Source of the DNA: Yuukianura sp. NJ FZ-2021
Taxonomy: Eukaryota
Length of the DNA stretch: 64,000 nt
Assembly (NCBI GenBank): GCA_046563655.1
Contig: CM102288.1
Span: 4,588,001-4,652,000 of the forward strand
Direction: 5' to 3'
The notes under the pieces are model-generated. The model had not been told where the DNA came from, made no database searches, and saw only the letters and a program-made list of their open reading frames with translations. The translations under genes and the position numbers were made by a program. Below, in pieces: positions 6,715-34,710 of the stretch (positions are counted from its first letter, which is position 1; every line of letters starts with the position of its first letter).

Positions 6715-8552
6715 CTATTGAAGAACGAGTCCAATTTCGTTAGCTTCAACGGTGGGACATTTCCAGTTATACAAGTAGTATTGTAGATTTCCATCACCAA
6801 CGCCAAACTTAAGTGGCTCCAGGAACTCTTTGTTATCCATCAAGTCCAAGGCGTTGAACACATCAAATCCATTCTACAAACAAACATATGAAATAGAACT
6901 GTGTTCGTTTTGAAAAGCTCCGTCTAAAGTTCTAACCGAAGCTGTGAATCAAGATTATAGACACAATTTTGAAAGAAACTTTTTTTTCTCACCCGTTTGG
7001 CCAGAATGAGCGCATCCGACATTAGGTCTTGTAGCGACATGGATGTGGCGACGTTGTAAAATGAATAGGCAGCTTTGATGGACTTGTGCAATGGGTTATT
7101 TACGACAGTCGACGGCAAGAAATAGTAGCTGATCATATCTGCGGAAAGCAAACAAACGCTGGCAGTGTTAAATATAAAAAAATTAAAAATTAGCACAGAA
7201 ATCTAACCTGTAACGACTCCATTTGATTCAACGACGTACGCCTCCACGATGTTTGGCTTAGGCAAAAACCAATGTTCAAATTCCGCCCGGGTAAATACAG
7301 GAGTAAGTTTGAACTTAGGTAGATATTTAGACAGTAGTTCGTGGGCCGACGGAATGTCCTTCTTTGTCATTGGTCTAAGTCCAGCACACTTGGTTTCCGC
7401 TGGAAGTCGATAGAGTTTGATAGTACGCTGAAGAGTCATGTTGCGGGTCAAGTGAGAAAATCGTGTCTCGATTAACTTCTTGGGATTGAGAGACCGGTGC
7501 CAGTAGCGACAAGTAGAAATTGGTTTCGGAAGAACCACGCCAGCGGTGTAGACGGCTTGGAAAATTCCATGCAAGTTGACACGCCGAGTGATTTCTCGAA
7601 TCAGAACAGGAGCTACTCTCTTTGAACGTAATTTTTTGTGGACGCAGAGAAAGTTTATTTCAACAATCTTCATTTTCCTGAAATCAACACATTTACTTAT
7701 TGTTATAATGTTTAATTTTGAAAAAAAAACAAAATTGAATGAAAACATACTGCGAATGGACTGAAATTGTTGCTGGAACTCCGGAAATGAACCCAACAAG
7801 TTTCTTATTCTTGGCAACACGAACACCACAGTGCCACTCCAGTTTCCAGCCGGGAGGTTTCAGTGCCCTGTCAGAAGTAGGTGATTCACTAACAGGGTTT
7901 ACCGCCAAACGTAATGCTGCAAATTAATTAAGTAACATACCACATAAGAAACTCTGCAGGATAATCGAACCGGAACAAGCAGTCGTCATCCTCTACATAA
8001 TTTTCACTTAGAAGAGTATAAAGTTCTTTCAACTGTGTAAAGAAAATACATTATGACAGCAACGTAAGTGTATCAAGTGAAGGATAAACATTAATTGATA
8101 ATCAAATCATACAATGGCTGGATCATCAATGTCAAGCGTATCCCAAATAAAGCTGTCCGGCAAACTATAAGGTTCTTGTCGGATTTGATCGGTAGGCACG
8201 TTCGGCTCAATAGCTTCATTCACAGTTACGGTCTCGTCTAAATAATTTACATAACGATTTATTCAAGCACAAAACAAAATTTTTTGGAATACCATAATTT
8301 AGTTAACTTACCTATTTTAGGGACGGGTTGCGTTGACCAGAATTCATAGGGTCGACTCGCAGCCTCAGCTGTCGTCTTTGGTGCTTTACCAGTTCCCAGA
8401 TTTAGTAATTGAACAGCCTTTTCCAAATCTTCGAGCTGTCAATTAAAAAAAACGTAAATATTTGCAACAGTGAAACATGAGCTGTCGCTCGAAAATCCGG
8501 GAAAATTGTGTTTAGCATTTACCTTGATAGTTGGCGGTGGATTATTTGCCAT
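6715..8552 (-). CDS. NMT: Glycylpeptide N-myristoyltransferase, multi-exon
   Basis: [80 protein letters not shown] and C-terminal IGLVLQ with TAG at 6717-6715. Start ATG at 8552 is inferred from a 30-nt first coding exon. Confidence 0.95.
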
Positions 8553-19750: not shown

Positions 19751-21998
19751 GACAATCTTATTTTAGCACTTAGTAGTTCAATTCCCTGAGGTGATAATTA
19801 TGGTGTGAGATCTTGAATAACTTAATATCGGGTTTAAGTAGCTCAAAATTGTTGTCGTCACTTTTTGAAAGCTGTCTCTTCCCAAGTTGTTTCTACTCCA
19901 ATGTCTCTGCAATGCAACCAAAATGATTGTTGTTACTTGATTAGTTCCTACGCAACACCTTGACACGCGACGACATCCCATTCCCAACATATCACCATCG
20001 TCTCCTCACGTGTTGTACGTGACACATGAAATGAGTCCATGAGAATTGGGATTGGGATATGATATGATCCCAATTCATAAATATATAATTGACACGATTT
20101 ACCCACCTTGTCAATCCCCAGTGTCTGCTGTGTCCACTTTCCTTGTCCAGAGGGGCGTCAGTTTGCCAGTCCCGGGTAAAACGATTGTTCTAAACCGGTT
20201 CTGGTGATTTGTATACAGAGAATTTAGATGTGGACACTATTTAGATATTACAGAAACACATGAAAACAAGGTGACGAGGAACAAGCACCCACCGACCATA
20301 TGACACGAGTTTAGGTGGTGTGATGTTCTGTAGTAAACTCACAATCGCAATCGCAATTCTCATTACGCAACGTGACGCAACGAACAAAAGTCCAATGTAC
20401 ATTGTACAATGCTTACGTCAAATATTCACCCGGTTGAAGTGCACTTTACCTACCATTATTGTTATCATATTAGCCGCACCAGGTAGCTTAACCTATCACA
20501 AGGAGCTTGTATTCGAAACGTCGTAAACCGGGGTTTGGGTTGAGTGAGTCGACTAATTCTCAGAAACCTATATTATGTTTGGTAAGCAATCGCAATGTCA
20601 ATTCTTACATATCGCAACAGTGAGTATACAACTTTCCAAATTGTAGTCACGGTATGGCCACAATAAGTGGCTACGCTGTGGGACAAACTTAAGTTGCCAC
20701 TGTAGTGAATGTCTTTTTATTCTAACCAAAGGTGAAGTTACGTCACCTTATGCAGCCACGGCTGCCTAAACAAACATTGTCAGTGACAATGAGGCTGACA
20801 ATTTGTCACCCTCACCAACAAGTCATTAAAATTTTAAACAAAAATTAAAAATTCAAAAATTTTAAAGCATACAAACATTTTATAAAATTTTTATATTTTA
20901 TATTTTTATATTTATAGTAAGGATGGCCTCATTTCCGATACAATGATGGTGTTGGAAGTTTATGTCAACCAGAGTCTGCTGTAAAGTTGGTGAATTACTT
21001 TGAATTTGGCGCCACTTTTTTTACTCACTTTTTCATTTTTTTTCGGAATTAAGTAGTATCAGTTCACTTTTCACACCTTTGATCACAAGATAAGAAACCA
21101 CCCACCTCTCCGCCTAAGTAATTGCAGATAAAATAGATCTAATTTTAAGACATCTACTTTTTAGGTTTAGACGTCTATTTTTGGAAATCAGGATTCCCCG
21201 ATGCAAAAATGTGACGACGCAACTTAAAATCATCCAATTGACTTTTACTTTCACAAAATAAAAAATCGTAACACAAACACTACTGTGTAGAATTTATTTT
21301 TTTGTTTATTAAGTTTACACTTTTTTAGTTTTTGAAAAGATTTTCGAATATACTAATTTTAATTTTAGGTGACAAACAAGCAATCTAATTGTTCATCTAA
21401 AGAAACTGTTCCCGACATTTCGCAGTTACTACCATCATTTCATTTTATATCAAGCGGCATTATAAACTCTGAAAAATGTTAACAAATTATCATTTTGCTG
21501 TTCCAGAATACAGATGACCGTAGTGTACTCATTCTTTAGCAGCAACTTGAAATTTGTTTTTCCCCGACGAAAGTACAGGGCCACTTTGTTTAAATTTTTG
21601 ATGCTCCAGATTCCCTGACCATTTACCCTTTCCCATTCCTCCTGTGGAGCAAGCGGAGAGCCATAAATTGGTGACGCTGGAAGATATGCTTGGATGAGGT
21701 GGTGAGAGAGTCGTTGTCTGGATTTGGGTCCTTGGGTCCCTTGGTTGCCATGAGAGACGCCCTTGACTGTCCCCTCCGATCATGCTCCCTTGGATCCTGG
21801 ATGTGGGATGATGATGTGCTGGGAGGGGGAGAAAGTGGGAGTGAAAGTGAATCTGCAGAATCTCAGTCCATCCTTGGCCTTCCGCTCAGCATCACACCCT
21901 CTCCCGCTCCTTTTCTGTTCAAATGGAAGTGCTAGTTGAGGTAACATCGAGGGTCCACGGCCTGGAAGGCGGGTAAAAACCATGTAACACCGTCGAGG

Positions 21999-24641
21999 AT
22001 GTTCCTCGTCCACAAGTACACGGAGTACAGGGCGGCTCAGGCTCAGCATGCCAAGAAGAAAGTCACGGAGAAAGAGCTCTTCCACCTCAACACCAAAATT
22101 GTAAGCCAAAAATATCAAAAAGAAAAAAAAATTTCAAAAAATAATTTCGAAATTTTCAAAACGATTCTGACAACTACCATAAATCTTCTTTTTATATCCA
22201 AACACGATGCGAAACGCGTCGTTGTGAATTTCATTCAGCTTCTTTTCCCAAAAAGGCAAAGAGAAATTGTATCTAGTGTTTGGAATTTTAAAATTCTTAA
22301 AAGCGAGTTTGAAGTTGATTGGGTGGAATTGAAAAGTGGAATTTATGGAATAGTTTTGTGAGATAGAAGAGACGCGTATTGCTTTCACCATTTGGTGAAA
22401 GTGGGGCAAAAGGAGTGCAGTGGAAGTGAAATGTCAGATCAGGAGCATCCTGAGGGCCTTCCTTTGCCCTTTTCTTGGGCACTTTGGTCGTTTCCAGAAT
22501 TTGGAAATCCATTCGTTCCCATTAGAGTCACTCCGAAGAGAAAAGTTCTTTCAACGCAATTACGAAGTCCATCTCTCTCTTCCTTTCCCACACCCTCCCA
22601 CTTCCTCCGATAAAAAAACAAATCACTTCCACACAAATTACTTCCAAGCCTCAATTCACGCTATCGATAGGCTAGTCAGCGGAATACCCGCTTTTTACCG
22701 TCCCACACAAATTCCCGGGTAGAGAAAGCTCCGGGAAATTCCCGATTTTTTTTTGAATTTTCCAAAAGAGATGAGAATTTCTAGGAAACCGAAAATGAAG
22801 AAAATTTCTGGGGCAAAATAACAATTTCTTGGAATGAGACGAATTTCCCGAGGCAGAAGAGAATTGCAGGCCAAAATACGAATTTCCGGTGAAAGTAACA
22901 ACTTCGTGCAATGATAGAATTTTTTCAATAAAGAACAAACTTTTCCGGGAATAATTAGAATTCCCGTAGAAGGTTAGAATTTCCCGGGGAAAACAAAAAT
23001 CTCAAGAGGAAAATGCGAAATCCTCGGAAAGATCAGAATTTCCCTCAAAAAAATGCAACTTTTCGGGGGAAAATAAGAATTTCCGGAGGAAAACTGGATT
23101 CCTTGCGGAATTAGAAATTTCCCAACAATGATTTGTGGGGTGAAGGTCACGATTTCCGGAGAAAACGAATTTTCATTGAAAAGATAGAAAATAGAGAATA
23201 GAAAAAATAGAATTTCCCGAAATAGAAAAAGGAATTTCTCCGAAGCACGTTTTTCAGCACAATGAGCGTTAACAAGCACTCGCCCTTGGGAAATTCCAAG
23301 CAGTAAAATTACTTTCGATTGGGAAGAAAGTAAAGTACTATTTCTAAATTTTTCAGTCGGAAATCACTCGGAAGTATCCCGAACCCTGAAAAAAATGGCC
23401 AACCGAGTAGCATACACCTTCCTTGGTTCCATTATGCTTCAAAAGAATGAGACTTTTTCAAAGGTGTCTCCCGGTGAGATGCCCCATTTGCCCAGGCCAT
23501 ATCAATAATTGCGTTTCTTTTGTGTTTGGGACTCTTAGGAAAAATTACTTTCCAAATTGGATGAGCACGAACTTGAAATGGCTCGGAACGAAGATGAAGA
23601 GGTCAGAGGTCACGCTAACTTTCTTTTCCCAACCTTTCCAATTTTCCTGATTACAAACCGATTGATTTTCACTTTCAGTGCGTCGTATGCATTACGGCTA
23701 AGGCGAACATGACGACATATCCTTGTGCCCACTCTGTCCTGTGTCGAAAGTGCTTTGTCAAGACAATTCAAATGGCCGTTACTGAACGTCGCTTGCCGCT
23801 CCGTTGCGTCATCTGCCGAGCCAAGATTCTGAGACTCAAGCAAGGAAATGTACCCGTGTCGGACTCACTGTACTCCGTTAGCTCAAATGCTTCCACAGCA
23901 TCTGGAACTTCCTGGAAGTCTTCTGCGTCCACAACAGGCTCAGTCATGTCAACATCTTCTGGAAAATCAGGTTGCACGTCTGCCTCATCTGTCATTTCTG
24001 GAAGATCTTCAACTAGAGATTCTCCAGCAGCCTTTTATTCCTCAAAACACGCCTCCTCAACTAAACATTTCTCCGGTCTTTCCGGTAATTCCATTTGGAT
24101 TCGGGATTCTTCTGCGTCTTTTTCGACTTCGTCTTCGCGTCAGCCGTACCGGATTTCCCGCACAACTTCTCCAGCTCCATCGTCTTCGAAATCTTCCCAC
24201 TCATCAACTTCCGGTTCCAAAAGTGTTTTTGATTTCAAAAACGCCGCTTCAGGCTCCAAAACGTTTTCCGTTTCAAAAAGTTCTTCGGATTTGAAAAATG
24301 CGAACACTTCATCCACTTCAACAACTCCGAAATCCGAACCGTTTTCATCTTCAACTTTTCGTAGAGTTCAAATGGCTCGTATGGGGTATGAACCACTTCG
24401 GTCCTCTTCCCCACCACCAGCTTCGACAGCATCGGTGCCACCACGTTCCAAGAAATCCGGTGGGAAGTACAAGGTGGGGCAAGAAAAAGTGGACCCACCG
24501 AAACCCACGATACAACAGCCACTTTCTCCTGCCAAAGGAAAAGTAAAACTAAGCCAAGATTTTCAAAGACAATTTAGAAATGGAATGTGTCAAGCAAGTA
24601 CTAACCAAAATGGTGGACTCGGAACTGGGCGCGTAAGGTAA
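21999..24641 (+). CDS. Uncharacterised C3HC4 RING-finger protein with a long Ser-rich disordered tail; 3' end uncertain
   Basis: Exon 21999-22100 (MFLVHKYTEY...LNTKI, GTAAG donor) splices in phase 0 to 23679 (ttcag acceptor): CVVC...YPCAHSVLCRKC...RCVIC RING, then about 260 aa Ser/Thr/Lys-rich. A further exon probably starts at 24859 (ttttcag), but the donor used (24633 or 24638) is ambiguous. Confidence 0.75.
22705..23240. repeat. Degenerate tandem repeat of about 19-20 bp (consensus near AGAATTTCCCGGGGAAAAT) in intron 1 of the RING gene
   Basis: GAATTTC(C)/AAATTCC cores recur at roughly 20-nt spacing, separated by purine/A-rich spacers, over about 500 bp. Confidence 0.6.
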
Positions 24642-24704
24642 AACTTTTCCCGCCATTTTGAATAACTTAAGTGAAATTCCAAACTTTCCCGCACAAACTT
24701 ATTA

Positions 24705-24838
24705 AAACTTCCCAACTTCTCATAATTTTTTGAAACTTCCCAACTTTCTCATAATTTTTTGAAACTTTCCAGCTTCTCATAATTTTTTGAAGCTCTCCAG
24801 GTTCTCATTTAAGCTTCCCAGCTTCTCATAATTTTTTG
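24705..24838. repeat. Minisatellite, about 28-bp unit AAACTTCCCAACTTCTCATAATTTTTTG, about 5 copies
   Basis: Directly visible tandem copies, one internally deleted, in a probable intron of the RING gene. Confidence 0.85.
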
Positions 24839-25613
24839 TGACCTGATTAAATTTTCAGGTCGAGTCGTGGTTTGGGCCCAGAAGCTGCTTGGTCTGAACC
24901 TGTTCACAGCAAGGGTCAAGGTCATCCTGCTCAAAGTCCAAAAGCTAGTCCAGGAGACTCTGCGCAACAAAGGAAAGTGCACCAATCAGCGTCAGTGAAG
25001 GGCCCTAGAGTGTCCAAAGTATAGTCTGGGGATCGATACGAAGCAGAAGCAAGGTTTTGGAATGGAGATGGAGATGGAGATGAAGAGATCAAGAGATATG
25101 TGATGAGAAAAACTTACGAAATAAGTCCCTCCAGGGATTCCTAGATTTTTAGAACAAAGATGCAATACTCTATGAAACCAGAACATATTATTTAATTAAT
25201 TAGTTTTAGAATTAGTTTTAGTTTTGTAGTGGAGAAACCAACTCATTTCAAACATTACCTTCTAGAGAAACTGATCTCTCTCATTAGAGCCAAAAAAACA
25301 TGGGTCGGAGTAAGATTACTATCATCATTGTTGCCACACGGTGTAGCCACTTTGTGGCTTCTGTTGCCACTGCAGGTTAGATCTGCATATATTGCCAGTC
25401 AAGTGTAGTCATCTACTGTAGAGAGACACGATGGCTACACTGCGAGGCTACAATGACGGTAATTAATCCTTACTTCAACCGAAACCTGAATAGAAAGTCT
25501 ATTAAATAAATTAATTTAGTTGTATTTTAATAAAAAATTACAACAAAGTGTGTAAAATTTACAAACGAGAGTAACTTTTATTAGAATTTCTGTGATGTTC
25601 TAAAAATAATCGT

Positions 25614-26838
25614 TTACTCGTCGTCGTCCTCTTCATCAGCTTCATTTCCAATCTGGAAGTAGCGCAGTTCGTACACATCACGACCGGTGGCAATCACTCG
25701 AAGTGTATCTCGGAGCAAGTTCTTCTTCAAGTACTTCTTCGTGAGGTACTTCAGGTATCTAATGAAATCAAAAATTAGTATAACTTAGAATTGTTCTCAC
25801 TTTTACAGAACTTTTCGGTATTTTTAGATAAATACTCACCGCTTAGAGAAGGGGATTGACGCATTGACGATGATCTTTGAGTTCTTGTCTCCGCGTTCAA
25901 TGGTGACATTGTTTCCAAAGTTACCTGTCTTCCCTCCAACCTTGATTCGCTCCTTCAAGAATTTCTCCTGTAGAAAAATCATAAAAATCAGAATGAAATT
26001 CAAATTGTTTCAGAACGTTTTGCTATTTTAGATTATTTTACTAAAGAGGGATGAACAGCCTACAAGTGAAATGGAACGATTTAAAAATGAATTAGGGAAG
26101 GAAACCCTAATCATTTCTATGGTTTTAGGGAAGATAACCCTAAGTTTTTTTCAGTTGTCCATGCCAGTCGTTGGTCATGGCTGATTATGTCCAGTGGCTT
26201 ATCTGAATCGTACAAAGTCGGCAGAGTTGAATAGTTGATCTTCAGCTGGAAGTGTACAGTCAATAACGAATCGAGATACTGTCTTCTTCTTCTTGCCAAG
26301 CAAACCCTTGCCACGAAGAGTGGCCTTCACTGCTGGCTTCTTGGCTGCTGGAGCCTTGGCCTTGGTGACCTTCTTCACATCCTTCTTCGGCGCAGCAGCA
26401 GCGGCGGGTTCCTTTGGTGAAGCTGGTTTAGGTGCTGGCTTAGCTTCGGCTTTCTCTACTTTTGGTTTGGCAGCGGCTGGAGTAGCGGCTTTCTTCTCTG
26501 GAGCCTTCTTGGTTTCAGCTGGCTTGGCCTTGGGCGGGGCGGTGGCTGGAGCTGGTTTGGCCTTTGGTGCTTCCGCTTTCTTGGCTTCTGGCTTGGCCTT
26601 GGGAGGGGCAGCCTTCGCAGTTGCAGCGGCAGCAGGTTTCGCGTCCTTCTTGGTTGCGGTAGCTCCAGCTGCTGGAGCCTTTGTGGCTGTTCCGGCTTTC
26701 TTCTTTTCCGTAGGCTGGAAAAAGTCAGGAACAATCAGAATCAGAACATGCCTTGAAAGCCTTGATTAGTTTCAACCTTTTAGCAGCATGAATTATAAGA
26801 TTCAGCCTTTTCGGAATAAGAATAGTATGACTTACCAT
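25614..26838 (-). CDS. RpL22: 60S ribosomal protein L22 (eL22) with an Ala/Lys/Pro-rich N-terminal extension, 258 aa
   Basis: Exons 26838-26836 (ATG), 26714-26214, 25967-25840, 25758-25614 sum to 777 nt. Core [58 protein letters not shown] and an acidic tail. Confidence 0.96.
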
Positions 26839-26875
26839 TGTCTAAATTGAAGAGTTCTCACAAATTAGTGGACAG

Positions 26876-26890
26876 GATTGAAAAAGACGA
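26876..26890 (-). promoter_or_regulatory. Candidate TCT initiator / 5'-TOP start of RpL22
   Basis: Minus strand reads TCGTCTTTTTCAATC about 48 nt upstream of the ATG, close to the polypyrimidine TCT motif typical of animal ribosomal protein genes. The TSS itself is inferred. Confidence 0.6.
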
Positions 26891-27600
26891 CTAGCCTTTC
26901 CTTGATTGATCGAGAGATCGCGACGAATGACTGTGCGAAAGACAATTTGTCCACCACACGGAACGGAGAGCAGTGAAGTCGACCACGCTGCTTCCAAAAG
27001 TCGGCTGTCAAAATGTCCTTTTGGGGTGCGGAAAATTCTGCTGCTCTATAGTGCGCCCCAATCAGTTGAGCTAAGGATTAACGATAATCATTGTGATTGT
27101 AGTGTCACGGTGTAGCCACTTCGGCCCATCTTGTGTGGTTACAACATGCAGCGGTAAAGTGGCTACACTTGGAGGCTTCAATTATAATCGTGAACCTTTC
27201 CCCAACCAAGTAACATTTGTATTTACAGCCCGCAGCGTAAAAGAATTTGCAATTTTACTGAAATAAAGGCGCCCCAATTTCTCATACCTCTGATTTGGAA
27301 GATTTTTTGCAGTCATGTGCACCAGAGGCGGAAAACCAAATTCAAAACCGCTACGAAACTGTGTTTTTATTTTGAGTTTTTTTGGGCAAGTTAAATAAAT
27401 CAACAATCAAGCTGACTGAAGTTGAATTTAGTACATTTAAGTTGATTAATTTAGTTTTGTTGTCAATTCTCAGTTCTACATATCAGGTAAGACCGGTCTA
27501 GGTTGATTGTTTCCGAAATTATTCGAATTCATAAAGATTTGTGCTTTCAGATTCAAAAGACGAAAATCAGATTGATTTGGATTGACCTTTACCAACAAAG

Positions 27601-31546
<3,946 letters not shown>

Positions 31547-32264
31547 AAAAGGAAGGGGAGAGCCAGAAGAGTCCACAAATCCATTTAGAACTTACGGTTG
31601 AGGTACACTTAAATTGCATCAGTTGTAACCACGAAGTGAAACCACCGACATCACTTACTTGTATCCACCGACATACTTACTTGTATTTTTGGGGTAAAAA
31701 ATAGCACTGTTATATTGTAACGTAGCTAGTGTATCCACATTCCACACAATGGTTGCACTAGCCGGTGCGGTGGAACTGCCGTTACACATGTGGGCACAGT
31801 TTTGCGTTTGAACAAAAAAATAGTGGTTGCATTGCAGTGTAACCACCTAGGGTATCTACGGAGTGGTTAGAAACATGGCGGTAGCGGTGGTAAACTGAGT
31901 GGTTACAACTGATGTATTGTGCGTTTACCTCAGCCGAACGCCCTTACTGTATAAGCTGCGTGTGGTTGAAGGAACAATGATAGTTTGGGAGATGCCTGGC
32001 AGATTACCATCACAATCCCATTAGGAAACGAAGGCATCTGAGGCTTGGGCGAGCCTTTGTGGTCTCTAGGTCTAGAAAAAATATGGAGAGAAGGGAGTAC
32101 TTTGTGTTTACATTTTTTAAGAGCCTTTCTGAGTGGGCGTACTTTGATTATCATTTATTAACATATTCCCTTCTTCTTCCTGGAGTAAATTTAGACAGTT
32201 TTGAAATTCTAAATCCATATTTTAAAAGTGCCATTTTTGAAACACCAGAGATGAATTTTTTAAA

Positions 32265-34710
32265 TTATCCAAGTCGATCTTCGTATTCTTCAACTGAATC
32301 TTTTTTAGTCTCAGTCTCAGTCGGTAGCGTAGTAGTTTCATAGGACTCGGAATTTCGCGGGGTTGGTTTTGCAAAATTTGTGGATTCTGTAGTAGATTCT
32401 GTGGATTCTGTAGTAGATTCTGTGGATTTTGTAGTAGATTCTGTGGATTCTGTGGTAGATTCTGGGAATTTTGTTGTAGATTCTGTGGATTCTGTAGTAG
32501 ATTCTGGGAATTCTGTAGTAGATTCTGGGAATTTTGTTGTAGATTCTGTGGATTTTGTAGTAGATTCTGTGGATTCTGTAGTAGATTCTGGGAATTTTGT
32601 TGTAGATTCTGGGAATTTTGTTGTAGATTCTGTGGATTCTGTAGTAGATTCTGGGAATTCTGTAGTAGATTCTGGGAATTTTGTTGTAGATTCTGTGGAT
32701 TTTGTAGTAGATTCTGTGGATTCTGTAGTAGATTCTGTGGATTTTGTAGTAGATTCTGTGGATTCTGTGGTAGATTCTGGGAATTTTGTTGTAGATTCTG
32801 TGGATTCTGTAGTAGATTCTGGGAATTCTGTAGTAGATTCTGGGAATTTTGTTGTAGATTCTGTGGATTTTGTAGTAGATTCTGTGGATTCTGTAGTAGA
32901 TTCTGGGAATTTTGTTGTAGATTCTGTGGATTCTGTAGTAGATTCTGGGAATTCTGTAGATTTTTGTGTACTTTTGTCCAGAACTTTTGTGACGTTAGAA
33001 GTTGCTTCCGCTTCAGCAAAACTTGATTTCCGGTTGACCTGAGACAAAACTTTTTCGGTTCCGTTTCTGTCTGTGGTAATTTCACGCTCATTTTCAACTT
33101 TACTTCCAGAATTGGCACTTGTAGAACCGTTCATTGACGTGACCATTGGCACTTCTCCGGCATTAGTCGTATTTGAACTTTCAGTTTGAGCAGAAGAGTG
33201 TGAAGTACTGCCGGTACTGTTATTGGTAGACTTGGTGTCGTTTTTGTCCATTTCAGAACTGGGTGCAGATTCTCGGTGGAATTCGGAAGTATTTGAAGAT
33301 GCTGCGGCGGTTTGTCGCTCGTGAACTTGTTGCGTCATGTTACTGATTTTTCCTTTGTCAAATTCCGTGACATTGGCAGAGTCAAGGTTGGTTTGTTTTT
33401 GAGCGGCAGAGACAGAGTGGATTTGAGTCGCTTGATTGGTTTTTACGACCCCACCGGATGTTTCGGATTTGTTTGTAGCCGAAGAGACTTGGTCCAGTGT
33501 CGAGTCGTTCCGAACTGACGAATCGGTTGAAGTAAGGTTGGAAATGAGTGTAACCATTTCCGTGTAACTGGAAGTTGAGGAAGCATCTTGCCATGCAGAG
33601 CTGTTCAAATTAAAAGTTTTGTTTAAAGACCAGCTTTTCAAAACAGAAGTCGTAGGTGCTGCATCGCCTTCGGAGCCATCCGTACCGTTTTCGGAGAAAT
33701 TCGGATGGATATCGCTATTACGATTCTCGTAAAACAATTGAAACAGGTCGAAAGCTTTGTCAACATCGGATTTTTGAGTGGAAGCGTTTTCGGTTCCTGT
33801 TACGTTATCAGATTTTGAAAATTTTTGAGTTTTTGTGTTTTCAATTTCTTTACTTGAATCTGATACAGAATTTACTGTGCTTCCTGTTTCAGAATCTTTG
33901 AATTTTTCTGTAGTTGCTTCCACTTGTTGACTTTTTTCCAATCCCGAGCCGGATTCCAAATTTTTGTCTTCAGTTTCAGTGAATTCATTAATTTTTTGTA
34001 CTTTCTCTGTTTTGTTATGAGGAGGAGATATCGTAGTAGAAAGGTCATCACTTTCACTTTTCTTGCTTTTCTTTTTATGTGACTTGTGCTTGTGTGTTTC
34101 ACTTCCGTTGACCTTTGTGTGACCTTTGACCTTTGTGCTTGGTTTTTCTTGCCTACTTTTTGTCTCATTGCTATCAGAAGGCTTTATGTTTTCTTCTTTT
34201 GTAGTGTGATCGCATTTGACCTTGCTTGCTTTTTCACATTTTCGTAGCTCCGGGTCGAAAAGTTTTCCTTTGGCGCAAGAATGCATACTGGCAGCATTCA
34301 TACCCGAGAAGAAACATTTGTAGTAACTGGAACAATCGTTTTTCTTCGGAAAATACCCGGGTTCTGGGCATTTGAATTCACCAAACGATGGAACTTGTGG
34401 TAAAAAAAAACAAATTAAAATTGAAAATCTTCAATTCTTTCTAAATTCGAAAAAATTGTGTTGAAAATTTTGTTTGTAACTTTTCACCTCGTGCTAATGT
34501 GTCGAGGTCGACCTCTGACGTTATCCAAGAGAGCCCTTTACTGCTAACCACAACCTAAGTACAAAAAATCCACAAAAGTTAAAATTTCAATTAGTTTAAT
34601 TGTAGTTCTAATTAAGTTTAATTGGAATTTACTTGGTCCGAAATTAACAACAAAACTACGACCACTGCTGAAGAGACTACTGTCAACTGTGGGCTCCAAA
34701 TACTCAACAT
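32265..34710 (-). CDS. Secreted mucin-like protein with one N-terminal chitin-binding peritrophin-A (CBM14) domain, about 757 aa
   Basis: Exons 34710-34633 (hydrophobic signal MLSIWSPQLTVVSSAVVVVLLLIS), 34554-34488 and 34393-32265 join in frame. Six-Cys CPEPGYFPKKNDCSSYYKC...HSCAKGKLFDPELRKC...VKC, then a Ser/Thr/Glu-rich region with many N-x-S/T sequons and tandem repeats. Confidence 0.85.
32378..32962 (-). repeat. Coding minisatellite, 21-bp unit (7 aa, TT[E/K][ST/FP]ES), about 28 copies
   Basis: Visible tandem units such as GTAGTAGATTCTGTGGATTCT and GTTGTAGATTCTGGGAATTTT on the + strand. Confidence 0.97.

Follow-up and report, generated by a model that had tools for sequence, protein, structure and literature searches.

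Our analysis revealed a short hairpin that is repeated within intron 2 of RpL22, and comparison of two species indicates that it is under purifying selection and is a real, selected cis-element. The hairpin array is probably an autoregulatory site of RpL22, a type of mechanism already known for L22 in yeast, in flies (at second hand) and in humans. The candidate site is a clean one: a 19-nt hairpin with two variable loop positions, present in two to three copies and kept while the rest of the introns diverged.

RpL22 is encoded on the minus strand of the window (the whole 64,000-nt stretch of DNA that was analysed) as a protein of 258 aa with a histone-H1-like tail, and the spliced coding sequence is 777 nt long and in frame. 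The gene is laid out as follows.

26838-26836, minus strand: exon 1, consisting of just the ATG before a strong donor (ATG/GTAAGT)
26714-26214, minus strand: exon 2, the Lys/Ala/Pro-rich histone-H1-like tail and the start of the L22e domain, with NSADF as its last residues
26213-25968, minus strand: intron 2, 246 nt, phase 0 (exon 2 closes on a full codon), donor UUU/GUACGA, acceptor UUUUUCUACAG
25967-25840, minus strand: exon 3, which encodes the L22e domain core (Pfam PF01776, E 7.4e-10 from exon 3 alone)
25758-25614, minus strand: exon 4, the KKYLKK RNA-binding motif, an acidic tail and the stop codon

The introns measure 121, 246 and 81 nt, in agreement with the first-pass annotation, which had given intron 2 as 246 nt long and the longest of the gene. 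Of 41 candidate proteins, 9 passed at E ≤ 1e-3, and these homologues carry PF01776. Mutation of KKYLKK to EEYLKE is reported to abolish RNA binding by vertebrate Rpl22 (PMC3750023), and the RpL22 of the window retains the intact motif. The one public RNA run found, X1, a sediment metatranscriptome, contains 0.04 of the sampled words; it yielded five contig pieces from a relative, lying over exon 2 and exon 4, none reaching intron 2 and none spanning a joint. The single long piece (277 nt) spans 26279-26555 with 10 differences.

Three stems lie within intron 2, and the coordinates and sequences that the first-pass annotation had given for the hairpins all agree on the minus strand.

26180-26159, minus strand: third stem, CCAUG(ACCAACGACUG)GCAUGG, -8.4 kcal/mol, z -5.20, 0/200 shuffles as good
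26143-26125, minus strand: hairpin W1, UUAGGG/UUAUCUU/CCCUAA, 6 bp with a 7-nt loop
26119-26082, minus strand: hairpin W2, 12 bp at 26116-26085, core UUAGGG/UUUCCUU/CCCUAA at 26110-26092, one bulged U

W1 folds at -6.1 kcal/mol (z -1.95), a value equalled by 4 of 200 shuffles. In W2, the same core is lengthened by AUGA/UCAU and then by more A-U and G.U pairs across the bulged U, giving -10.7 kcal/mol (z -3.94), and none of 200 shuffles is as good; its 3' arm contains a branch-like CUAAU. The 106-nt segment with all three stems reaches -33.4 kcal/mol (z -5.76, 0/200 shuffles), and all three are present in both the minimum free energy fold and the centroid fold of the whole intron. The end of exon 2 taken together with the 5' block of the intron folds no better than shuffles (z +0.46 and -1.02).

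The repeated unit is rare. UUAGGG-UUNNCUU-CCCUAA occurs twice in intron 2, with a separation of 33 nt (repeat family D8). The 19-nt pattern TTAGGGTTNNCTTCCCTAA, with up to 2 mismatches allowed, has 2 matches in the 64 kb against 0.02 expected, and at least two matches arose in 0 of 100 shuffles; no behaviour as a genome-wide repeat was seen within the 64 kb. Requiring at least 6 Watson-Crick pairs closed by G-C and a loop of 7 nt leaves only three hairpins on the minus strand of the window, among them W1 and W2. When hairpins of the RPL22-ligand type were counted more broadly (at least 5 bp, a loop of 5-9 nt, U as the 3' loop base), intron 2 held 3 against 0.139 expected per 246 nt (Poisson 4e-4), and its plus strand held none.

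A metagenome scan provided at least four confirmed relatives (L001-L004) among 597 listed stretches. L004, a metagenome contig, comes from a deeply diverged relative whose RpL22 has the same exon structure. The two genes encode the same residue in 110 of 123 codons, and 106 of the 128 nucleotides of exon 3 are identical, while four-fold sites agree in 14 of 42 cases (JC distance 1.65). Introns 1 and 3 align with 50/118 and 37/80 identical columns, and their best shared segments, of 12 and 11 nt, were reached by 105 and 215 of 300 shuffles, respectively. In intron 2, a 31-nt segment around W2 and its counterpart R2 is shared with 29 identities; none of 300 shuffles reached this, the shuffle maximum being 17. 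In L004, too, intron 2 (808-1085, 278 nt) exceeds the other introns of the gene in length; it contains the hairpin three times (R1, R2 and R3) against two in the window. W1 is orthologous to R1 (903-921), judged from the common 3' flank. The third stem, which the first-pass annotation had also listed, does exist and is stable but lacks a counterpart in the aligned region of L004.

The five copies from the two species give the consensus (U)GA-UUAGGG-UUNNCUU-CCCUAA-N-UCA(U), in which 18 columns are invariant in 5/5 copies, comprising both arms and loop positions 1, 2, 5, 6 and 7. The spacers between copies cannot be aligned between the window and L004. Because these columns are invariant while copy number (2 versus 3) and spacers differ, selection acts on the hairpin unit itself; and because the hairpins were kept where the other introns and the synonymous sites are saturated, a regulatory RNA element in RpL22's own intron is likely. 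A covariance model of the unit scored W1 at 29.1 bits (E 5.6e-5) and W2 at 50.1 bits, and recovered only the five copies in the window and L001-L004, the next sense-strand match scoring 15.4 bits (E 0.43). The motif is absent from the spliced mRNA contigs L001-L003. Elsewhere, a motif scan gave 3 viral and 26 prokaryotic loci with one match each, which we regard as chance, since 17 fixed bases should be matched at random about 69 times in 596 Gb.

The hairpins could instead be a functionless remnant of a tandem duplication or mobile element, or an intron-encoded small RNA (snoRNA or miRNA). Two copies only 33 nt apart and the MITE-like inverted repeats around the gene fit a remnant, and ribosomal protein introns are frequent hosts of snoRNAs. 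A neutral copy, however, is not expected after such divergence: the hairpins have outlasted a divergence in which introns 1 and 3, along with the four-fold sites, became randomised, which disfavours a remnant, and the motif is not repeated through the 64 kb. As for small RNAs, Rfam gave no match with E ≤ 1 in 20000-32000 and none at gathering score across the window, so that the snoRNA scan suggested in the first-pass annotation turned up nothing relevant in the intron 2 region. On L004, the only match was one of 22.8 bits to mir-4662 (cut-off 97), located in intron 1. A pre-miRNA or an H/ACA arm would need more length than the 19-41 nt of the hairpins, and inspection of intron 2 in the window and in L004 showed no conserved pair of C/D boxes with a terminal stem. 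We therefore regard both forms of this explanation as highly improbable.

Since the stems are invariant and do not covary, conservation does not separate an RNA structure from a DNA palindrome or from single-strand motifs. None of the nine base pairs changes on both sides and six are invariant; 39 of 45 cells are paired, compared with 33-58% for slid partners. The element might thus act as DNA, with TTAGGG-N7-CCCTAA as a palindromic site for a dimeric transcription factor in an intronic enhancer, maybe together with the GATAAG of the 5' block. The palindrome is a perfect 6+6 with no covariation, and its conservation would equally suit reading of the double strand. At 10 nt from its start, the intron has a conserved AGATAAG, which resembles a GATA site, and telomere-repeat-like boxes are cis-elements of plant ribosomal protein genes; we know of no animal factor for the TTAGGG-N7-CCCTAA palindrome. 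Two features would be unexpected for a symmetric DNA site. The spacer is conserved yet asymmetric (UU..CUU on the sense strand), forming a pyrimidine-rich loop. Between the core and the UGA/UCA extension, which is kept, 4/5 copies carry a variable one-sided bulge or a 1x1 mismatch (U, A, C, C.C), and the extensions of W2 and R3 contain G.U pairs, which the opposite strand would read as A.C. The folds also speak for RNA on the sense strand: the antisense fold is the more stable one in 0/5 copies, and the sense fold is strictly more stable in 4/5 (for W2 in its 41-nt context, -14.7 versus -10.9 kcal/mol). Action as DNA is, in our view, improbable.

The shape of the hairpin agrees with what is reported for RPL22 ligands, as the first-pass annotation had proposed. 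The rule of Dobbelstein and Shenk (1995) for ligands of the EBER1/SELEX type, as given in PMC4838235, describes a hairpin with a G-C closing pair and a loop that is 5-9 nt long and has U as its last base. All five copies have a G-C closing pair with G on the 5' side, a loop of 7 nt and a loop end of CUU, which places U in the 3'-most position. The two papers render the rule differently: PMC5755908 writes it as 5'-NNNNG(N)7CUNNN-3', and here G(N)7C is present in 5/5 copies, while the base after the closing C is C rather than U in 5/5. The rule was derived from the human protein in vitro. In human CLIP work, the SELEX-derived rRNA sites were reportedly not detected, and the RNA recognition rule of RPL22 was described as still "loosely defined" (bioRxiv 10.1101/2024.08.15.608201; PMC12035866); the regulatory element of yeast is likewise reported to be unlike the SELEX rule (PMC4838235, PMC5755908). 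Within the ribosome, eL22 contacts rRNA helices 57 and 59.

The invariance of the stem exceeds the demand of a rule of shape plus two bases, so that another or an additional reader is possible. In this alternative, the hairpins form a conserved splicing element read by a factor other than RpL22, such as an hnRNP A/B-type protein on UAGGGU in the 5' arm or a PTB-type protein on the loop YCUU, or they conceal a branch site (CUAAY hidden from U2). Invariance of arm and loop sequence suits sequence-specific readers better than a loose shape rule, and UAGGGU and UCUU/CCUU resemble the preferences of hnRNP A1 and PTB. CUAAU or CUAAC is found in the 3' arm of W2, R2 and R3, and a pyrimidine run with an AG lies 18-32 nt past each of W2, R1 and R2. 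There is also an animal precedent, since stem-loops that conceal branch sites are reported to control poison-exon use in animals, including Drosophila (PMC11162794). Nevertheless, a single-strand reader leaves the retained complementary arm, the bulge and the UGA/UCA extension unexplained. The cryptic acceptors are positionally unconserved in the two sequences, pyrimidine runs followed by AG are common in such introns, and this alternative gives no reason for the element being in RpL22. We consider a reader other than RpL22 rather unlikely.

We tentatively prefer the interpretation that the intron 2 hairpins are an RpL22-binding array that limits RpL22's own production by negative feedback, which we hold to be somewhat short of probable on the basis of the conserved sequence and the parallels in other organisms. 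Free RpL22 that is not yet in ribosomes would be the ligand of the array. When RpL22 is in excess, it would occupy the array on its own pre-mRNA, and occupancy would make the productive removal of intron 2 poorer, the GUACG donor of this intron being already weak. Unspliced or mis-spliced RNA would meet an early stop and would be degraded. As unproductive RNA with an early stop gives no ribosomal protein, the loop would be one of negative feedback. Judged against the donor consensus, the donor of intron 2 is indeed weak: it reads UUU/GUACGA in the window and UUU/GUACGG in L004, compared with ATG/GUAAGU for intron 1 in both. Against the feedback reading, the 9 homologous proteins include no truncated retention product.

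The donor belongs to a second conserved part of the intron.

26213-26198, minus strand: conserved 5' block of intron 2, GTACGATTCAGATAAG, 14/16 nt the same as GTACGGCTCAGATAAG in L004

This block includes the weak donor, with C at +4, and the retention reading V-R-F-R-stop (TAA at 26201-26199). A retained intron 2 would read ADF-VRFR-stop in the window and V-R-L-R-stop in L004; the two differences in the block are one synonymous and one Phe/Leu change, and conservation stops just past the stop codon. Intron 2 might accordingly be a switch with two outputs, namely a tail-only H1-like protein ending in V-R-(F/L)-R-stop upon retention and an intron RNA that serves as a sponge for RpL22. RpL22 would fill the array and cause retention, and the tail-only product could act on chromatin or otherwise extra-ribosomally. 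The conserved 16-nt block after the donor, with its conservation ending just past the stop, is the reason that such a switch fits. The "short" isoform of Drosophila rpL22-like, which retains mainly the H1-like domain (PMC3074143), is a loose precedent for the tail-only product. We regard a switch with two outputs, as opposed to a simple shut-off, as improbable.

A rival reading concerns the acceptor. The first-pass annotation had proposed that RpL22 binding shifts the choice between the acceptor at 25968 and two cryptic sites, and that NMD destroys the resulting products.

26061-26060, minus strand: cryptic AG after UUUCACUUGU, the use of which adds AVHPSLVK and then a stop
26042-26041, minus strand: second cryptic AG, TAA immediately after, inside a weak A/U-rich hairpin at 26045-26027

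The readings proposed for both sites (AVHPSLVK-stop after 26060, TAA after 26041) were reproduced. The CUAAU in W2 is at intron position 119 and the first AG at position 153, which places the branch A about 32 nt upstream of the AG, and the 15 nt upstream of 26060 are 80% pyrimidine, a fair tract. The stops that had been taken as the mark of these acceptors are present. They are not special, however: 9/9 non-canonical AGs of intron 2 reach a stop within 0-33 codons, and plain retention does so after 4 codons, so that a premature stop after a cryptic AG carries no information. Neither the AG at 26060 nor that at 26041 is matched in position in L004, in which the 58 nt between the last hairpin and the true acceptor are entirely free of AG. 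L004 has its own pyrimidine run and AG after hairpin 1 (AG 944-945) and hairpin 2 (AG 993-994), each followed by an early stop, which is a point in favour of the switch. A further parallel comes from the human protein, for which CLIP peaks are reported on two stem loops of RPL22L1 intron 2, with splicing directed to a non-productive form (bioRxiv 10.1101/2024.08.15.608201; PMC12035866). The likeness is that two small stem loops lie in intron 2 of an L22-family gene and, in the human case, are bound. There, however, a paralogue is cross-regulated through intron 2 / exon 3A, and a single, defined alternative 3' splice site is used, with which the stem loops overlap. In the window the intron is the gene's own, and its cryptic acceptors, which are unconserved, come 25-45 nt after the last hairpin. 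In addition, the main text of PMC2689934 names fly ribosomal protein genes that are AS-NMD targets, and RpL22 is not one of those named. The switch between acceptors 26060 and 26041 is therefore not upheld in that form, and a shift of acceptor choice is, like two outputs, improbable.

The closest parallels to the preferred reading of negative feedback are in yeast. Like few other ribosomal proteins, RPL22 has a documented second role in regulating splicing, acting on its own genes in yeast and on RPL22L1 and MDM4 in human cells. Yeast Rpl22 is reported to bind a stem-loop in the intron of RPL22B, which has the donor GTACGT, and to inhibit its splicing (PMC4838235, PMC5755908), and Rpl22 homologues, the human protein included, are reported to complement this function (PMC4838235, PMC5755908, PMC13630204). 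Yeast RPL22B and RPL22A and K. lactis RPL22 share with the present gene an intronic stem-loop within their own gene family, with inhibition by the protein being a prediction in our case. The donor of RPL22B also has C at +4 (GTACGT there; GTACGA and GTACGG here), relatives share the yeast intron element, as the two species here share theirs, and the RNA-binding lysines are required in yeast; KKYLKK is kept here. Two marks of the yeast type of autoregulatory intron (RPL22B/RPL30/RPS14B) are present: a conserved structured element in the gene's own intron, seen in two species, and a sub-optimal splice site. In contrast, the intron in yeast comes after a first exon that is very short, and intron 2 here interrupts the L22e domain. 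Yeast has a single structure, long and complex, that works as an allosteric switch and departs from the SELEX rule; here there are two or three identical short hairpins, known from sequence, that fit the rule.

In Drosophila, the RNA that RpL22 binds may itself be the active product. Ng, Chan and Pek (2024, Cell Rep 43:114228) are cited as describing circRpL22, a stable intronic sequence RNA of the RpL22 locus that is bound by RpL22, and RpL22 is reported to repress itself and its paralogue (PMC11883427, PMC11508205, PMC11844049). The likeness lies in an H1-tailed, fly-type RpL22 that is reported to bind RNA of its own locus with intronic sequence. The difference is that the active RNA in Drosophila is circular and that, by one account (PMC11844049), which we cite at second hand, its stem-loop is in exon 2. 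By extension, the excised intron 2, or some circular or otherwise stable RNA made from it, might be stabilised by the hairpins and titrate RpL22 in trans. circRpL22 is reported to modulate the levels of RpL22 and RpL22-like (PMC11883427, PMC11508205, PMC11844049), several identical sites on one RNA would suit a sponge, and the whole of intron 2 is more stable than shuffles in both species (z -2.53 in the window, z -3.94 in L004). The placement of the bound stem-loop on exon 2 in the fly (PMC11844049) weighs against this view, which in any case overlaps the autoregulation model and does not exclude it. We regard an active intron RNA as distinctly unlikely.

Two further systems bear on the feedback reading. 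Zebrafish Rpl22 is reported to bind a SELEX-type hairpin in exon 2 of Rpl22l1 that is necessary and sufficient for repression (PMC3750023). From a published primer, we infer that the codons of this hairpin immediately precede the ...ANF with which exon 2 ends, next to the same exon-intron neighbourhood. In contrast to the present array, the zebrafish hairpin is exonic and single-copy, is reported to affect mRNA abundance, and has the paralogue as its target. RPL10A/rpl-1 has a strongly conserved intronic stretch with AS-NMD autoregulation (PMC4937301), and so resembles our case in having a ribosomal protein intron that is unconstrained apart from a conserved island; it is a single 40-nt stretch as opposed to a repeated hairpin. 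For RPL10A and for the concealed branch sites reported in PMC11162794, alternative junctions and NMD sensitivity have been demonstrated, whereas our case is read from the genome. In the literature searched, mostly outside subscription journals, we found no description of a hairpin array in RpL22 intron 2 of insects or other arthropods.

If RpL22 binds the hairpins, they would provide a sharp natural ligand for the specificity of eL22 with regard to stem sequence, bulge and loop UU..CUU. Intron-based autoregulation of L22 would then extend to an arthropod-type gene, and the variable copy number would make it possible to test whether dosage is sensed cooperatively. Should RpL22 not be the ligand, the reader of an intronic hairpin under strong selection would still have to be found.

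Two minor observations concern repeats in and around the gene. Tandem Repeats Finder did not call the hairpin pair as an array, its sole report being a 12-15-nt repeat in exon 4. MITE-like inverted repeats are located on the flanks of RpL22.

The hairpins lie in intron 2 (25968-26213) of a four-exon RpL22 gene on the minus strand, which was read over 25000-27600 and then spliced by script. The spliced gene model comprises the following exons:

26838-26836, minus strand, RpL22 exon 1
26714-26214, minus strand, RpL22 exon 2
25967-25840, minus strand, RpL22 exon 3
25758-25614, minus strand, RpL22 exon 4

Introns 1, 2 and 3 are 121, 246 and 81 nt in length, respectively, and intron 2 is in phase 0, between ...NSADF and EKFLKERIK.... 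The pyrimidine run GTCGTCTTTTTCAATCC at 26877-26893 (minus strand), approximately 40-55 nt 5' of the ATG, resembles a TCT-type initiator, a motif typical of ribosomal protein genes. The predicted protein of 258 aa consists of a Lys/Ala/Pro-rich tail followed by the L22e domain, and Pfam PF01776 matched with exon 3 alone (E 7.4e-10). In RpL22, a tail of this H1-like type is reported as a fly feature (PMC3074143), on which basis the source would be an arthropod, probably an insect. The KKYLKK motif, whose mutation to EEYLKE is reported to abolish RNA binding by vertebrate L22 (PMC3750023), is retained.

All coordinates in the first-pass annotation proved correct in the minus-strand read. Hairpin 1 (W1, 26143-26125; -6.1 kcal/mol), hairpin 2 (W2, 26116-26085; -10.7 kcal/mol) and a third stem, CCAUG..GCAUGG (26180-26159; -8.4 kcal/mol), gave z-scores of -1.95, -3.94 and -5.20 against shuffles, and the 106-nt segment with all three folded at -33.4 kcal/mol (z -5.76), which none of 200 shuffles equalled. 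The fold of the entire intron retained all three stems. The same 19-nt unit, TTAGGGTTNNCTTCCCTAA, underlies W1 and W2, which lie 33 nt apart; with up to two mismatches, they were its only occurrences in 64 kb (expected 0.02), and two occurrences were found in 0 of 100 shuffles. W1 and W2 are two of just three minus-strand hairpins in the window that have at least six Watson-Crick pairs, closed by G-C around a 7-nt loop.

Nine homologues, all full-length L22e proteins, were recovered from 41 candidates when the end of exon 2 served as the protein query; eight have the long Lys/Ala/Pro-rich tail, which is absent from P0003 (134 aa). Metagenome contigs scanned with P0001, the closest of the homologues found, gave at least four loci, L001-L004. 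L001-L003 are spliced mRNA-like contigs, and L004 (1802 nt) contains all three introns at the same positions as in the window. The window and L004 encode the same residue at 110 of 123 compared codons and agree at only 14 of 42 four-fold sites (JC distance 1.65). Introns 1 and 3 are identical at 50/118 and 37/80 aligned columns, and their best ungapped shared segments (up to two mismatches) are 12 and 11 nt, lengths that 105 and 215 of 300 shuffles, respectively, also reached. The best segment of intron 2 is 31 nt with 29 identities, a length reached by none of 300 shuffles (maximum 17), and L004 intron 2 contains three hairpin copies (R1-R3), at 903-921, 958-976 and 1009-1027. Of the comparative support sought earlier, conservation of the hairpin unit was found in the two species compared, and covariation was not. 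The third stem, stable in the window, has no counterpart in the aligned L004 region. A neutral duplication or transposon remnant could not have persisted across such divergence. A pre-miRNA or H/ACA arm would be longer than these hairpins, and no C/D box pair with a terminal stem is visibly conserved between the window and L004. Rfam gave no match at E<=1 in 20000-32000 and none at gathering score across the window; on L004, its sole match was a far sub-threshold miRNA in intron 1. The intronic snoRNA that was to be excluded was not seen, either in Rfam or as box architecture, and it is highly improbable that the hairpins are a remnant or a small RNA.

Alignment of the five copies showed 18 of 41 columns to be invariant, namely both arms and loop positions 1, 2, 5, 6 and 7, so that the loop consensus is UUNNCUU. 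In four copies the stem is extended by UGA/UCA or longer across a one-sided bulge or 1x1 mismatch of variable base (U in W2, A in R1, C in R2, C.C in R3); W1 is the 6-bp core alone. Six of nine tested pairs are invariant and the remainder deviate by unpaired cells alone, and the structure is therefore backed by conservation and by asymmetries (loop, bulge and G.U pairs), not by compensatory change. The same asymmetries speak against a palindrome acting at the DNA level, which we consider improbable. Folded in 41-nt context, the copies gave -7.0 to -15.4 kcal/mol; the sense fold was at least as stable as the antisense in all five and more stable in four, most widely in W2 (-14.7 vs -10.9). A covariance model of the unit recovered the five copies alone in the window and L001-L004 (29.1-50.1 bits), and the next-best sense-strand match scored 15.4 bits (E 0.43). 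Viral and prokaryotic collections scanned for the motif gave only loci with a single match, at chance level.

According to Gabunilas and Chanfreau, an RPL22 ligand is a G-C-closed stem with a 5-9-nt loop whose 3'-most base is U (PMC4838235). All five copies fit this rule, and the G-C closing pair and 3' loop U noted at first in W1 and W2 are present in each. Abrhamova et al. give the rule of the same source as NNNNG(N)7CUNNN (PMC5755908); the copies match G(N)7C and lack the U after C. Intron 2 contains three ligand-type hairpins (stem of 5 bp or more, 5-9-nt loop ending in U), against 0.139 expected. Precedents are strong. Yeast Rpl22 is reported to bind an intronic stem-loop and block splicing, the unspliced RNA being degraded partly by NMD (PMC5755908, PMC4838235); the yeast intron is described as a switch in RNA structure that the protein stabilises (PMC13630204), and L22 homologues up to the human protein reportedly replace yeast Rpl22. 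In human cells, CLIP is reported to place RPL22 on a pair of RPL22L1 intron 2 stem loops located at an alternative 3' splice site (bioRxiv 10.1101/2024.08.15.608201; PMC12035866), and a zebrafish hairpin, at the end of Rpl22l1 exon 2, is reportedly bound by Rpl22 and sufficient for repression (PMC3750023). Given these precedents, and since the array is conserved and fits the rule, we favor autoregulation: free RpL22 would bind the hairpin array and lower productive splicing of intron 2. This is the most likely reading, held tentatively; we infer that RpL22 is the ligand, in which direction splicing shifts and what becomes of the RNA. Drosophila RpL22, a further precedent, is said in three second-hand reports to repress itself and to bind a circular stable intronic RNA of its own locus (PMC11883427, PMC11508205, PMC11844049). 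A trans-acting stable or circular intron RNA is quite unlikely here, and this alternative overlaps RpL22 binding. In favor of another reader, the arms, which contain UAGGGU and CUAAY, are more invariant in sequence than a shape rule would require; stem-loops hiding branch sites are also described as a control of poison exons (PMC11162794). Another reader or a concealed branch site is nonetheless rather unlikely beside RpL22 autoregulation.

L22 gene autoregulation via intronic stem-loops is already known; new here is the unit itself, sharply defined, present in several copies and conserved over a deep divergence between two species, in an arthropod-type RpL22 and with a predicted ligand role. 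The array was not described in a literature search whose scope excluded Ng et al. 2024, the likeliest relevant source, together with supplements on bioRxiv or in PDF form, among them the human hairpin figures.

The first-pass annotation proposed a switch to PTC-generating acceptors at 26060 and 26041. These AGs and their stops exist as described, but all nine non-canonical AGs of intron 2 are followed by a stop within 0-33 codons, and simply retaining the intron gives one after four, so that the label is uninformative. Neither AG has a counterpart in L004 intron 2, where no AG occurs across the 58 nt between the last hairpin and the true acceptor; a switch at these two sites is improbable. By direct reading, L004 has a pyrimidine run and AG after hairpin 1 (944-945) and hairpin 2 (993-994), with early stops after both, although two sequences cannot show an excess over ordinary pyrimidine-rich introns. 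A weak A/U-rich hairpin in the window, UUUAG/UAAAAUAAU/CUAAA (26027-26045, minus strand), fits the formal ligand rule and overlaps the second AG and its TAA; it is not conserved in L004.

The intron 2 donor is UUU/GUACGA in the window and UUU/GUACGG in L004 (intron 1, ATG/GUAAGU), and judged from the donor consensus it appears the weakest of the gene in both species. The donor of the regulated yeast RPL22B intron, GTACGT, likewise has C at +4 (PMC5755908). Of the 16 nt that open intron 2, 14 are identical (window 26198-26213, minus strand, GTACGATTCAGATAAG; L004 808-823, GTACGGCTCAGATAAG), and the block translates in frame to V-R-F/L-R-stop. One mismatch is at a third codon position and synonymous, the other is at a first position and exchanges Phe and Leu; the similarity ends directly past the stop codon. 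The block includes AGATAAG; a splicing element, a DNA site and the last codons of a retention isoform are all possible readings. Its AGAUAA complements the hairpin 1 loop, UUAUCU, in the window but not in L004.

Upstream of the first L004 hairpin lies a purine-rich run (855-871, GAGGAGGAGGAAGGGGA) whose sequence complements the pyrimidine-rich loops and 3' arms. The minimum-energy structure of the L004 intron has it in long-range pairings in place of hairpins 1 and 2, possibly an alternative conformation; the window has no equivalent run. The RpL22 3' UTR is conserved around AATAAA (window 25558-25586, minus strand; L004 1506-1537). Just past it, L004 has AAAACG/UUGCUCU/CGUUUU, a 6-bp, G-C-closed hairpin with a 7-nt loop and 3' U, formally of the RPL22-ligand class; the window counterpart has one C fewer and would need a bulge.

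The surroundings of RpL22 in the window include the following:

7203-7829, minus strand, N-myristoyltransferase exon (PF01233 1.9e-29, PF02799 7.2e-29)
23709-24641, plus strand, 310-aa ORF with a sub-threshold RING-finger match (19.7 bits, cut-off 27)
32265-34301, minus strand, 678-aa ORF with no Pfam match

RpL22 is flanked by a short MITE-like element with inverted repeats, present twice (repeat families D4 and D6, pairs I1, I2, I4 and I5), whose arms end in GGTGTAGCCACTT / AAGTGGCTACAC: one copy is just 3' of the gene's 3' UTR (25314-25465), the other approximately 250 nt 5' of the start codon (27083-27188). A tandem array at 24696-24848 (family D1), of about four 28-29-nt units, (A)ACTTCCCAACTTCTCATAATTTTTTGAA, sits between RpL22 and the upstream plus-strand ORF.
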